Sequence record: OZ335961.1
Strand: one strand, 5' to 3'
Source of the DNA: a phage
DNA length: 64,000 bases
Shown: piece by piece, positions 35,484 to 41,801 of the stretch
Layout: each line of letters starts with the position of its first letter
How positions within the stretch are numbered: position 1 is the stretch's first letter
The notes under the pieces: model-generated
Databases searched by the model: none
Told to the model about the DNA's origin: nothing
The model's input: the letters and a program-made list of their open reading frames with translations, nothing else
Made by a program: the position numbers and the translations under genes

Positions 35484-36077
35484 TTATTTCAGAGAATTAA
35501 TGTATTCCTGAACATCGGCAGAGGTAGTTTCAACCCCAGAAATATTACCGTTAAAGGTTTCAACCCGAGCAAGGGTATCTTCAATATCAACCTTAGTCAG
35601 TGCTGCAATTTCAACTACATCATCGGCAGTACTAATTCCAAGGGCATTTGCTGCACGAGTTTCACGGATATATTCCAATTTAACCGCAAGTTCTTGACGA
35701 GCATCATCTAACTCAACTACTTTCTTGGCGATTTCAATTCGCATTTCAGCATAACCGTCAGCCTTAGTAGTCAACTGCTCAGCTGTTCGACGATATAGTA
35801 AACCGAGTTTAGCATGCATTGTTACATCTTGACCTTCGGAAAGAAGTTTACGAATTTCACGCTCTTTTGATTCAGCCTGTCGATTCTTTTCGATAACAAG
35901 TTCACGAATACGTTTTTCTTCGTTAATAGATTTAACAGAAGCAGTTTTTAGATCTTTAATTTTATCAAGTAGTTTTGCTGCTGCAGCAGTATACTGTTCT
36001 TCGACAGATAGATTTTTAGCCATAGCAGAACCAAGTTTAGTGCGAATAAACTCAACAATTTTCTTCAGTGTGTTCAT
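35484..36077 (-). CDS. coiled-coil protein (possible PspA/IM30-like fold)
   Basis: 197 aa, helical heptad-rich; followed by UUCG-type terminator. Confidence 0.5.
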
Positions 36078-36181
36078 AGTATTTCCTTAGGTTGATTAAG
36101 ATTTAAAATCCGTAAAAGTAGTATTATACTCTATCATCAAGTTACAGGCTCATAATATCTCAATCATGAGCCTATGTAAAC

Positions 36182-36445
36182 TTATTTCATATTATTGAAA
36201 TATTCTTCTGCGATTTCGTCGTTATCGTGGTAAACTTTAGAAGACAGTTTAACATAACCTTCAGCAGTGAACATATTAATCACAACCTTTACAGTATACC
36301 ACTGTCCGTCTTCATTACCCATTACTGCGTAAGTTTCAAACATCGGATGGTCAGGACCGATAACTTTAATATCATTCACTGTACGACCAAAATCTTCTGA
36401 AACGCATTTCATAAAGAAGTTGAACAGTTCGCCGTAATTATCCAT
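36182..36445 (-). CDS. hypothetical protein (start likely MDNYGELF)
   Basis: Track ORF 36182..36499; early promoter -10 overlaps the first codons. Confidence 0.45.
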   Translation of the reverse strand: MDNYGELFNFFMKCVSEDFGRTVNDIKVIGPDHPMFETYAVMGNEDGQWYTVKVVINMFTAEGYVKLSSKVYHDNDEIAEEYFNNMK

Positions 36446-36658: not shown

Positions 36659-36677
36659 CCCTATCATTTAGATAGGG
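36659..36677 (-). terminator. rho-independent terminator after 187-aa capsid-targeted protein gene
   Basis: CCCUAUC-UAAAU-GAUAGGG followed by CUUUUUGG. Confidence 0.55.
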
Positions 36678-36685
36678 ATTTAAAA

Positions 36686-37249
36686 TTATTTACCTAGTTT
36701 AGTTATTATAGCTTCGGCAGCAGCTTTTAGCTTAGATGCGGTGTTAATACGATTTTTAATTTCAGTATACGCATCGCCAAGAACATCAAGGCTATCAGAA
36801 TAAACACTTACACTATTGCGTTCGCTATTTGAAATAGAACCTTTAGTTTTACGATCAAAATCGGTGTACACGTCTTGAAGATCACGGGCTGCCTTCTTTG
36901 CATCATCCAATGCGTCAAGAGCTTTATTTAAAGCATTAACATATTTTTTAGTGTCAAACATATTCTTAGAAATTTTAACAGGTGCACGTTCAGGAGTAGC
37001 TAATGCAGATTTAGGAACCTGAGCGCCAGATGCCAGTTTCTTAGAAATTTTGAAAAATGCTTTATTGAATTTATTTTCTTGACTCATCGTAAAAGAACTA
37101 TTATCGATGTTGTACATTTCAATAGCTTTAGCTTTCCACTTAAGAAAATCGCCGCGGTCTTTTGGGTCTAATTGGAAGAATACTTTAGTAAGATCTGCTT
37201 CAGATGGTAATTTTGCTGCTTCGGTTAAAAATTCGGCATAGGTTTTCAT
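36686..37249 (-). CDS. capsid-targeted internal-protein-like protein (187 aa)
   Basis: N-terminus MKTYAEFLTEAAKLPSE resembles T4 capsid targeting sequence; own terminator downstream. Confidence 0.55.
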   Translation of the reverse strand: MKTYAEFLTEAAKLPSEADLTKVFFQLDPKDRGDFLKWKAKAIEMYNIDNSSFTMSQENKFNKAFFKISKKLASGAQVPKSALATPERAPVKISKNMFDTKKYVNALNKALDALDDAKKAARDLQDVYTDFDRKTKGSISNSERNSVSVYSDSLDVLGDAYTEIKNRINTASKLKAAAEAIITKLGK

Positions 37250-37343
37250 TTAAAATCCTTGAAATAATTTATCGGTTGGTTATTAATTATTTATTACTTT
37301 GTTATTATCCGTAACAGCATTCTATATGTGATTCAAACTAAAA

Positions 37344-37367
37344 AGCCCCAACCTTTTGGTCGGGGCT
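37344..37367 (-). terminator. rho-independent terminator
   Basis: 9-bp stem with AAAA loop followed by U-tract on minus strand. Confidence 0.6.
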
Positions 37368-37374
37368 AAGAATG

Positions 37375-37848
37375 TTATTTGATTTGTTTAGCAGACCAAA
37401 TGCGGTCTTTAATAATTTTTTGGATGTCTTCAACATACTCAAGAGAGTGAACATGTGGATTATCTTTGAAACTATAAGCACGGGCTAACTTTTGGCCTTC
37501 GGTTTTGATTACTAAAAGCTCTTTAAGGATAGCTTCATATTTAGCGATAATTCCTTTAACGATATTTTTTTCTTGTGCAGCTTTAGGATCTGCTTTAGGA
37601 GCAGGTTTACCCGAAGCCTTTGCAAAAGCAGCGCCAGTAGCAACTAGACTTTTCCAGGCCATACTAACTGCATTTCCCGTAAATCCTTCTGCTTTCATGT
37701 CGCGAGCAAATTGGAATCGTGATTCGTCAGAAGCATCTTTATAGGAATATTTACCCGCTGCAATGGCTGCTTTTGCGACAGCTTGAATTTCGGTGCTAGA
37801 TGCTTCATTTAACACCGCTTCATTTAAAAATTGAGCATATGATTTCAT
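37375..37848 (-). CDS. capsid-targeted internal-protein-like protein (157 aa)
   Basis: N-terminus MKSYAQFLNEAVLNE; late promoter TATAAATA upstream and hairpin terminators on both sides. Confidence 0.55.
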   Translation of the reverse strand: MKSYAQFLNEAVLNEASSTEIQAVAKAAIAAGKYSYKDASDESRFQFARDMKAEGFTGNAVSMAWKSLVATGAAFAKASGKPAPKADPKAAQEKNIVKGIIAKYEAILKELLVIKTEGQKLARAYSFKDNPHVHSLEYVEDIQKIIKDRIWSAKQIK

Positions 37849-37888
37849 CTTATTTCCTGTTTTAATTCGTGGATTTAATATACTACTG

Positions 37889-37896
37889 TATTTATA
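37889..37896 (-). promoter_or_regulatory. late promoter (TATAAATA)
   Basis: Exact TATAAATA on minus strand ~40 nt upstream of the 157-aa capsid-targeted protein gene. Confidence 0.55.
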
Positions 37897-37902
37897 CTAA
37901 AA

Positions 37903-37926
37903 AGCCCCAACCTTTCGGCTGGGGCT
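37903..37926 (-). terminator. rho-independent terminator closing the tRNA/stable-RNA transcription unit
   Basis: AGCCCCAGCC-GAAA-GGUUGGGGCU followed by UUUUUAGUAUAAAUA. Confidence 0.65.
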
Positions 37927-37959
37927 AAGCCTTGCGGCAACCTTGTCGGGGTTCCACCT

Positions 37960-38234
37960 GCTAAGGCAAGTGTTTGTACGAAACGCCGGGATTCGAACCC
38001 GGTTATTAAGCAGTTGACGCTACTCAATATTTTTAAAAGGCCATATCTCGACCATATCCGAACGTTCCGTCAAAAACGCTACTCGGCTTACGGCAAAGAT
38101 ATTTCCTCGAATCGATAATTCTGTGCGCCGTTTCAGCTGTGATGTAAGGGGGCATTAACAGATCGTAAAGATTTGTTAATGCCAGTCCTTACCCAGGGAA
38201 CATCAGTCCGACGACTTACCGGTAGCGACCCGGT
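37960..38234 (-). ncRNA. possible small stable RNA(s) / tRNA-like element downstream of tRNA-Arg
   Basis: ORF-free stretch with T-arm-like GGTTCGAATCC (~37981-37994) and a perfect 10-bp hairpin GGCATTAACA...TGTTAATGCC (~38144-38176); position corresponds to T4 stable RNA region. Confidence 0.3.
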
Positions 38235-38310
38235 TTCTTGTTTGGTCGAGGCAGTAGGGATCGAACCTACGACCTAGGACTTAGAAGGTCCTTGCTCTTC
38301 CTTCTGAGCT
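38235..38310 (-). tRNA. tRNA-Arg (anticodon UCU)
   Basis: Hand-folded cloverleaf, perfect 7-bp acceptor stem, GGTTCGATCC T-arm, encoded CCA; coordinates approximate. Confidence 0.7.
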
Positions 38311-38750: not shown

Positions 38751-39401
38751 TTATATATTGTTAATTTGATTTAGAATTCTTTTTGCTTGAGTATGACTTA
38801 CGCCAATATGCTTAGCATATTTAGATAATTCACCGCGCTTAGAAAAATCATATAATTTAGAAATTTCTATTCTTCTTTTTCTTTCATCCGCAGAAACTTT
38901 TGCTTCGTTCGCTTTTGCTATTTTACGTTTAGCTTCTTGAGAATGAGTTTTACCAGCAAAGCCATTCTTCATTAATCCATTTGAAGACCATCCTTTTAAT
39001 TTTCCGTTAGAATGTGCCTTTTTAACACCCAATGAAATTAATTCGCGTTGCTGATCTGTCATAGGATAATTATTTATATGATCCCATCCACCTTCACCGC
39101 CAAGTTTTAAATTATACACATCTGGTCTATTTAAAAACTCTTCTGTAACAATATTTTTCTCGGCTTCAAGCATAGATTCTTTATCATCAAAATACTCTAA
39201 TATTTCTTTAGAGAAATTTTCTATACCATACTTATCTTGGGCTCGTTTTAATAATTTACCAGAACCCATATATCCATCATCTAAATTTTCGGTAGAATGC
39301 ACACCAATATAAATTTTATTATTAATTTTATTTGTTATTTTATAAAGATAAAAATGCATATCAGTCCCTAATAAAGAACTGAGCGTCTCACGACGAGTCA
39401 T
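38751..39401 (-). mobile_element. segB: GIY-YIG homing endonuclease (SegB-like) embedded in tRNA cluster
   Basis: 216-aa ORF; N-terminal GIY-YIG motif FYLYKITNKINNKIYIGVHS...GYMGSG; located between tRNA-Gly and tRNA-Ser. Confidence 0.75.
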
Positions 39402-41183: not shown

Positions 41184-41471
41184 TTACAAAAGATTTTTAG
41201 CAATAATCTTGAGATGTGCCGCAGAAATGTGTTTAGCTTTAAACAACGCAGTTTCTTCAGCAGGAGAGATAATGATTGTAGCACCATCCTTTTTAGCAGA
41301 CCACCCATCACCTAGATAAACAGTACCTTTGATTTCTTCGCCATCAACCAGACTAATCATTGGTTTACCTTCTCGTCCTTTATTTGCTTTAATAACTTCA
41401 GAAGTAAGAGTAGCTTCGGTAATAGTAGAAACTGGGGTAATTGTAGAAGTAAATTCTTTAAATGTTTTCAT
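41184..41471 (-). CDS. capsid-targeted internal protein (IPI-locus variant, 95 aa)
   Basis: N-terminus MKTFKEFTSTITPVSTITE; own early promoter cassette. Confidence 0.55.
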   Translation of the reverse strand: MKTFKEFTSTITPVSTITEATLTSEVIKANKGREGKPMISLVDGEEIKGTVYLGDGWSAKKDGATIIISPAEETALFKAKHISAAHLKIIAKNLL

Positions 41472-41543: not shown

Positions 41544-41801
41544 TTATTTTAAATCTTCTAATCGTTTCTTCATCTTAGAACCGTTCTTAGCGATTTCGCC
41601 TGCATCAGAGCATAATGCTAAAAGAGCTTTAACTTTAGTTTGGTCTCCTTTAAAAGATGAAGGATCGACTGCAGCAGCAAGTTCTTTAATACGAGAGAAA
41701 AGACGCTCAGCTTCAGCTAAAGCCATTCCAAGCTTTACTTCCATACCGTGGGAAGATTCAGTAATAGTAGTTTTTGTAGCAAACTCTTTGAAAGTTTTCA
41801 T
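41544..41801 (-). CDS. capsid-targeted internal protein (IPI-locus variant, 85 aa)
   Basis: N-terminus MKTFKEFATKTTITE; own early promoter cassette nearly identical to the neighbour's. Confidence 0.55.
   Translation of the reverse strand: MKTFKEFATKTTITESSHGMEVKLGMALAEAERLFSRIKELAAAVDPSSFKGDQTKVKALLALCSDAGEIAKNGSKMKKRLEDLK

Follow-up and report, generated by a model that had tools for sequence, protein, structure and literature searches.

Two genes between rnaC and e.8 of a Tequatrovirus as candidates for unnamed T4-type internal proteins

Do two small genes lying between the tRNA cluster and the e.x genes of a T4-like phage encode internal head proteins, at a site where T4 itself has none? 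The question arises in a 64,000-nucleotide stretch of sequence record OZ335961.1, a genome segment of a Tequatrovirus, which is called the window here and is meant at its full length. A first-pass annotation of the window had described two open reading frames (ORFs), of 187 and 157 aa, whose N-termini resemble the capsid-targeting sequences (CTS) of internal proteins (IPs). Both are present where it placed them, and their strand, which it had left unstated, is minus:

37375..37848, minus: gene of the 157-aa CTS protein; leader in codons 1-10 (MKSYAQFLNE); Shine-Dalgarno sequence AGGA at 37858-37855
36686..37249, minus: gene of the 187-aa CTS protein; leader in codons 1-10 (MKTYAEFLTE, then A)

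Both ORFs probably encode previously unnamed internal proteins of the T4 type. By analogy with T4, there is a good probability that both products are packaged, processed and injected, and the two genes are likely candidates for anti-defence proteins delivered together with the DNA. The location between the e.x genes and the tRNA cluster also held, and its edges can be drawn more precisely at rnaC and e.8. The suspicion that T4 has no internal protein there proved right, as comparison with T4 shows a 285-bp gap alone between e.8 and rnaC, with no gene and no ortholog. The 1.5-kb region matches 675 phage records and shares 99.4% identity with Shigella phage sb3.

Capsid-targeting leaders and the two protein families

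The 157-aa protein begins with MKSYAQFLNEAVLNEASS... (short form MKSYAQFLNEAVLNEA...) and the 187-aa protein with MKTYAEFLTEAAKL... (MKTYAEFLTEA...). In T4 IPIII, the first 10 residues suffice for packaging, even of GFP (PMC9026906; PMC3012670). Mutagenesis of IPIII assigned residues 4 and 7 to targeting and residues 8 and 10 to processing, and the gp21 protease cleaves behind (L/I)-x-E (PMC9026906). All positions defined in IPIII are kept in both ORFs, as Y4, F7, L8 and E10, and the next residue is Ala. The resemblance seen in the first-pass annotation is thus borne out: like T4 IPI-III, both proteins have a 10-residue leader (MKTYQEFIAE in IPII and IPIII) that ends in (L/I)-x-E followed by A. 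The strict pattern MK[TS][YF]x[EQ]F[LI]xE has four matches when the window is translated in six frames, at the starts of ipII, ipIII and the two ORFs, and none in 200 shuffles. With a looser leader pattern, six sites were found, all heading long minus-strand ORFs; the additional two are ipI and an 85-aa IpV ORF. The window therefore carries homologs of ipI, ipII and ipIII along with the two genes studied here.

The predicted processing differs from the first-pass annotation, which had pointed to Glu residues at about positions 15-17 as sites to check for cleavage. From the motifs, gp21 is predicted to cut both proteins behind E10, with a second cut behind E15 in the 157-aa protein. The 187-aa protein has one (L/I)xE motif only, at residue 10 (L8-T9-E10, then A). 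In the 157-aa protein, L-N-E followed by A occurs at residues 10 and 15 (L8-N9-E10 and L13-N14-E15). The T4 proteins have a single site, at residue 10 in IPII and IPIII and at residue 19 in IPI. The second motif of the 157-aa protein is the product of a 15-bp tandem duplication (37827-37802, minus), in which TTAAATGAAGC recurs at 15-nt spacing, and its Mosigvirus and Jiaodavirus homologs have a single site only.

We aligned 11 divergent members of the 157-aa family, whose identity to the window protein goes down to 26-32%. Such divergent members stem from Mosigvirus, Jiaodavirus and phages of Yersinia, Cronobacter and Serratia. Their leader follows M-x-x-[F/Y]-x-x-F-[L/V]-x-E: M1 and F7 never vary, L8 hardly does, and position 4 is F or Y. 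The leader is kept at its functionally mapped positions while the rest of the protein falls to about 26-30% identity, which indicates selection on the leader itself. After the leader, the members share a conserved N-domain ('GKYSY...RFxF...AWKS') and a Pro/Lys/Ala linker, followed by a C-terminal half that differs between genera. The AlphaFold2 (AF2) model of the 157-aa protein, with a predicted local distance difference test (pLDDT) score of 73, shows a disordered leader, a helical N-domain, a PAPK linker and a helical hairpin. The ratio of nonsynonymous to synonymous substitutions (dN/dS), computed against four relatives including one Mosigvirus at a dS of about 1.5, is 0.06-0.09, indicating purifying selection.

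The 157-aa family is found in 512 phage records, and a profile search of 1.8 billion representatives with the family returned 13 proteins only. Syntenic homologs closely follow the tRNA/rnaC region in Mosigvirus APCEc01 (73% identity) and the Klebsiella Jiaodavirus KP1, and T4-like phages infecting Yersinia, Cronobacter, Serratia, Enterobacter and Erwinia have homologs too. Nearly all are named 'hypothetical protein' in the databases; one UniProt entry names the homolog of Klebsiella phage KPKp 'Internal head protein'. The homolog of Yersinia phage phiD1 (fD1), g140, shares 97.5% identity with the 157-aa protein and counts as particle-associated ('PPAP'), having passed the strict threshold in liquid chromatography-mass spectrometry of purified virions (PMC8309999 Table S3). 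The same virion study detected 49% of the phage gene products and 672 host proteins (PMC8309999). The detection of g140 is weak evidence for packaging of the 157-aa family, supportive and not decisive. Another gene of phiD1, g129, lies upstream of denV, encodes a 157-aa 'head protein' and is also listed as particle-associated in the fD1 proteome (PMC8309999).

A total of 165 phage records contain the 187-aa protein, with an identity that almost always reaches at least 95%, and its dN/dS of 0.05-0.11 also indicates purifying selection. Its AF2 model is all-helical with a pLDDT of 60, a low confidence that makes it too poor for a structure search. The homolog in Shigella phage CT01 (1501-1989 of the CT01 stretch) carries an in-frame deletion of 25 aa between two 'KISK' repeats. 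The deletion coincides exactly with the low-confidence linker of the model, a dispensable stretch at about residues 71-95 of the 187-aa protein, and the precise loss of the modelled linker suggests two separable helical domains.

Outside the leader, the two proteins are related neither to each other nor to the T4 IPs by any comparison made here. Paralogy of the two is unsupported, since BLASTP aligns the leader alone and hhalign of the leader-trimmed families gave a probability of 0.3%. Unlike their leaders, the mature parts of both proteins have no detectable similarity to IPI, IPII or IPIII. Both proteins match phrog_2280 (function unknown) in PHROGs. Searches of Pfam and NCBIfam gave nothing above threshold for either protein, and a sequence search of the PDB found no relative. 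A sub-threshold cytochrome b562 match of the 187-aa protein was rejected, as it reflects helical bundle character only. Fold comparison gave generic helical-hairpin matches only, with no sequence or fold similarity to IPI*. In general character, the two proteins are small and basic like T4 IPI-III. The predicted mature forms are about 15.5 kDa with an isoelectric point (pI) of 9.6 for the 157-aa protein and about 19.6 kDa with a pI of 9.5 for the 187-aa protein, compared with 9.0-9.65 for T4 IPI*, IPII* and IPIII*; the net charge of both is +8 to +9.

Several database proteins join fragments of the 157-aa or 187-aa protein to unrelated sequence, one of them consisting of the N-domain of the 157-aa family and the neighbouring Klebsiella-phage ORF. 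These fusions may be assembly chimeras or real recombinants.

Terminator-bounded cassettes between rnaC and e.8

The elements that delimit the two genes are the following:

37977..38115 (about), minus: homolog of rnaC (species 1 RNA), from T4 alignment at about 90% identity; upstream edge of the locus
37903..37926, minus: terminator T1, AGCCCCAGCCGAAAGGTTGGGGCT then TTTTT; -20.6 kcal/mol, z = -3.8, from a terminator scan and folding
37889..37896, minus: late-promoter octamer TATAAATA, exact T4 match; 2 nt past the T1 T-run and 40 nt before the ATG of the 157-aa gene
37344..37367, minus: terminator T2, AGCCCCGACCAAAAGGTTGGGGCT then TTTTT; -19.5 kcal/mol; closes the 157-aa cassette
37288..37295, minus: putative late-promoter-like element AATAAATA (7/8 match); 38 nt before the ATG of the 187-aa gene
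36659..36677, minus: terminator T3, CCCTATCTAAATGATAGGG then CTTTTT; -10.7 kcal/mol; closes the 187-aa cassette
36182..36445, minus: e.8 homolog of 87 aa (MDNYGELF...), whose start and upstream region align with T4 e.8; downstream edge of the locus

Along minus-strand transcription, the order is tRNA cluster, rnaD, rnaC, T1, 157-aa gene, T2, 187-aa gene, T3 and e.8. Each gene is a self-contained cassette of promoter-like element, Shine-Dalgarno sequence, ORF and terminator, placed directly after the T-run of the preceding terminator. In the 187-aa cassette, the 94-nt spacer between T2 and the ORF holds AATAAATA and a Shine-Dalgarno sequence. Three terminator-like hairpins bracket the genes. 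The first-pass annotation had bracketed each gene with strong terminators, which is correct for T1 and T2 and overstated for T3, a clearly weaker hairpin. T1 is the ancestral rnaC terminator, which alignment shows to be present in T4 too, and T2 is a near-identical copy of it. Past the T-run of T3, the sequence returns to the T4-type e.8 upstream region.

In the intergenic alignment, T4 has rnaC, the terminator and TTTTT followed by GGTATCTA..., the e.8 upstream region. In the window, T1 with TTTTT is followed by AGTATAAATAC... (157-aa cassette), T2 with TTTTT by AGTTTGAATCAC... (187-aa cassette), and T3 with TTTTT by GGTATCTAGA... (e.8 upstream). The window, T4, phiD1 and CT01 share the recurring junctions GGGGCTTTTT / AG... 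and ...CTTTTT / GGTATCTA. The site is empty in T4, T2, RB7, Sf24 and PST. The 157-aa cassette stands alone in phiD1, and the 187-aa cassette stands alone in CT01, where it is joined straight to the rnaC terminator with the same junction; the window has both, as do, for example, phages sb3, pSs-1, RB14 and ime09. All four states thus occur (empty, 157-aa only, 187-aa only, both), with the junctions exactly at the terminator T-runs. Because all four configurations exist, each gene behaves as an independent module bounded by terminator T-runs, in agreement with the modular origin proposed in the first-pass annotation. If the products are effectors, these cassettes would be a clean natural example of effector gain and loss. 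In Escherichia phage vB_Eco_F26, an extra short coding sequence (2292-2414 of its stretch) between the 187-aa gene and e.8 matches the 3' end of that gene, apparently a partial duplication of the cassette.

The arrangement resembles the promoter-early stem-loop (PeSL) shuffling cassettes of T4-like phages described by the Krisch laboratory, in which small conserved stem-loop repeats flank single-gene insertions or deletions in hyperplastic regions and act as apparent recombination points (PMC2839356; PMC4122927). Here, the 157-aa cassette stands between the near-identical hairpins T1 and T2, and every junction falls at a T-run. In PeSL cassettes, however, an early promoter overlaps the stem-loop, whereas here a late promoter (157-aa gene) or a late-like element (187-aa gene) comes after the stem-loop; no early-type GTTTAC...TAxxxT promoter was found beside T1 or T2. 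Like those of T4 IPI-III, the genes are dispensable and polymorphic, and each is monocistronic with regulatory elements at its borders. They differ in locus, which is rnaC-e.8 here and denV-e or 57B-tRNA.4 there.

The exact late promoter reported upstream is confirmed as TATAAATA, and it belongs to the 157-aa gene. The octamer occurs 17 times in the window against 10.8 +/- 3.2 expected. Since this count is not significant alone, the weight rests on the position of TATAAATA and on its conservation together with the terminator in Klebsiella phage KP1, a phage of a different genus, in which the hairpin-TTTTTAGTATAAATA arrangement also lies upstream of the 157-aa homolog. The annotation of phage SA21RB lists the TATAAATA site as a late promoter. 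Unlike ipIII, ipI and ipV of the window, which have early-type promoters upstream, the 157-aa gene has a late promoter only. For the 187-aa gene, AATAAATA matches at seven of the eight positions, and CT01 has GATAAATA at the equivalent place, also a 7/8 match. AATAAATA is used as well by the 157-aa homolog in Mosigvirus APCEc01. A MotA box (middle promoter) or early promoter was sought upstream of the 187-aa gene, and nothing convincing was found. Late expression had been proposed for both modules; as a prediction from the promoter, it is firm for the 157-aa gene only and tentative for the 187-aa gene, whose promoter match is 7/8.

Possible function and rival explanations

The T4 IPIII paradigm suggests a course for both products, and all steps after translation are modelled on it. 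Late in infection, the precursors would bind the gp22 scaffolding core via the leader and enter the prohead. The gp21 protease would remove the leader at Glu10, with Glu15 as a further cleavage site in the 157-aa protein, and the mature proteins of 15.5 and 19.6 kDa would stay with the packaged DNA, to be ejected along with it into the next host. There, by analogy, they may neutralise a defence acting on the incoming DNA before phage genes are expressed. Ip1, Ip2 and Ip3 each inhibit one distinct GmrSD type IV nuclease (PMC12373910), and Bas37_0260, which is also a CTS protein, inhibits McrBC (bioRxiv 10.1101/2025.11.20.689424). Because all four functionally characterised CTS proteins act in this way, the most likely target would be a modification-dependent nuclease (type IV, GmrSD or McrBC-like). 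That both proteins inhibit type IV restriction or another defence at the stage of DNA entry is plausible, at somewhat less than even probability. Unlike the demonstrated inhibition by Ip1-3, an anti-restriction role here is drawn by analogy.

Several points weigh against this picture. Seven other named Ips, ip4-10, had no reproducible activity on the tested GmrSD variants (PMC12373910), so that a CTS does not guarantee an anti-GmrSD role. The fD1 proteome that lists g140 also contains DenV, NudE, lysozyme and the 672 host proteins (PMC8309999), and its specificity is low because so many non-structural and host proteins were detected. For the 187-aa protein, there is no direct evidence of packaging, cleavage or injection, and none in the literature by locus tag or in Tequatrovirus virion proteomes; its gene also has neither an exact late nor an early promoter. 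Finally, a narrow arms-race effector would less typically show the strong purifying selection and wide conservation seen in the 157-aa family.

The last of these points would suit a generic head role. The proteins would be packaged IPs with no specific host target, serving in DNA charge neutralisation, condensation or ejection, as has long been proposed for the bulk IPs. Their basic nature (net charge +8 to +9) fits such a role, as do the predicted simple helical hairpins, which show no recognisable enzymatic or binding fold. The occurrence of the 157-aa family across many Tevenvirinae genera under strong purifying selection suits a housekeeping rather than a strain-specific role, and ip4-10 showed no anti-GmrSD activity. 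However, T4, T2, RB7 and PST manage with neither gene, which argues against an essential head function, and every CTS protein with a found function is a specific type IV restriction inhibitor. Moreover, the C-terminal half of the 157-aa family is swapped between genera while the N-domain is kept, resembling target-driven diversification. We consider a generic role rather unlikely.

Two further explanations deny delivery into the host. If recombination between ip gene starts (mosaicism) had produced the leader likeness as a by-product, the proteins would be unpackaged and would act late in the cytoplasm. This would accommodate the missing direct evidence for packaging of the 187-aa protein, the contaminated fD1 virion preparation and the mature parts that share no homology with any IP. 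It is nevertheless very unlikely: the amino acids of the leader are preserved at its mapped positions despite about 26-30% identity elsewhere, a sign of selection on the leader, a late-made protein with a CTS should be packaged given that the 10-residue T4 CTS alone packages GFP (PMC9026906; PMC3012670), and fD1 g140 passed the strict virion threshold. We regard as highly improbable that the proteins are prohead-core accessories that, like gp67, gp68 and gp22 fragments, go to the scaffold and are degraded or expelled in maturation; they would then be internal to the prohead without being delivered to the host. Scaffold components do follow the same targeting and cleavage logic, and the 157-aa protein has an extra internal L-K-E at residue 110. 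Scaffold proteins have multiple sites, though, whereas each of the two proteins has essentially one N-terminal site cluster, as IPs do. The genes are dispensable and polymorphic, and peptides of the 157-aa homolog were found in mature fD1 particles.

Internal proteins are a well-known class; rnaC-e.8 as a third locus and the two families appear unrecognised. That T-even relatives carry many unrelated CTS proteins is known as well (Repoila et al., 1994, as cited in later work), and Ip4-Ip10 were described at the ipI locus. Like Ip4-10, PST IpIV, IpV and IpVI and Bas37_0260, the present proteins are recognised by the shared leader only, have unrelated mature sequences and lie at a hyperplastic locus. 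Those proteins are all encoded at the two classical ip loci, unlike the present genes at rnaC-e.8, a site that is empty in PST. Identity with one of Ip4-10 is unlikely, judging from the different locus. A recent paper speaks of 'two Ip loci', and the Krisch-laboratory annotation of PST covers those two only. PST IpIV, which is also 157 aa long, was considered as a homolog of the 157-aa protein and rejected, as it is unrelated in sequence and the shared length is coincidental. Its gene lies at the ipII position (2427-2900 of the PST stretch) and its leader is MKTYQEFITEA.

A broader reading joins these observations, and we offer it as tentative and rather doubtful as a whole. The Tevenvirinae would have a third ip locus, hitherto overlooked, at rnaC-e.8. 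No other injected protein of the subfamily would be as widely conserved as the 157-aa family, with its conserved 'AWKS' N-domain, Pro/Lys linker and exchangeable helical hairpin at the C-terminus; the family extends over Tequatro-, Mosig- and Jiaodavirus as well as phages of Yersinia, Cronobacter, Serratia, Enterobacter and Erwinia, and its absence from T4, T2 and PST would explain why it went unnoticed. The host defences disarmed by the 157-aa protein and by the 187-aa protein, which is unrelated to it, would be distinct from the GmrSD and McrBC systems targeted by Ip1-3 and Bas37_0260. If so, the two proteins would be ready-made probes with which to discover immune systems directed against T-even DNA as it enters.

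Among phage effectors, internal proteins alone are already in place at DNA entry. Since 2025, every internal protein with an assigned function has been a highly specific type IV restriction inhibitor, and only a handful have been assigned. Annotation pipelines miss the leader. The two genes are unnamed in hundreds of records, and both products are almost always called 'hypothetical'. About 165 sequenced phages with the 187-aa gene and about 510 with the 157-aa family are concerned, and many of these are phage-therapy candidates for E. coli, Shigella, Yersinia and Klebsiella. Recognising the products as probable injected effectors would provide concrete genes for mapping host-range barriers, and the ip repertoire would be spread over at least three loci, not two. 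The finding will hardly surprise a T4 specialist, but it yields directly testable anti-defence candidates.

Neighbouring genes and other ip loci of the window

Upstream of the locus in the direction of transcription lie two further features:

39645-38243, minus: tRNA cluster, from ARAGORN
38122-38241 (about), minus: rnaD, from alignment with T4 at about 90% identity, coordinates transferred from the T4 annotation

Rfam detected tRNAs only at the locus, and rnaC and rnaD were therefore placed by alignment to T4. Within the tRNA cluster of the window, ARAGORN found no tRNA-Pro and no tRNA-His. A GIY-YIG/NUMOD3 homing endonuclease gene (Pfam; 38751-39401, minus) lies between tRNA-Ser and tRNA-Gly, at the site that corresponds to the tRNA-Pro position in SA21RB, PST and T4; segB of T4 lies elsewhere in the cluster.

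On the downstream side, the gene equivalent to the e.8 homolog of the window is annotated e.8 in SA21RB, ime09 and PST. e.7 is absent from the window (36078-36181), where e.6 (35484-36077) directly adjoins e.8. T4 has e.7 in the e.6-e.8 interval, and SA21RB, phiD1 and PST carry other small ORFs there.

The ipI locus of the window contains two CTS genes on the minus strand, ipI (41184-41471) and the 85-aa ORF (41544-41801), whose product is identical to PST IpV. Each is preceded by near-identical 'AAATAATTTCACAAAGTTGTTTACAT...GTGATAC' early-promoter repeats, in a PeSL-like arrangement.

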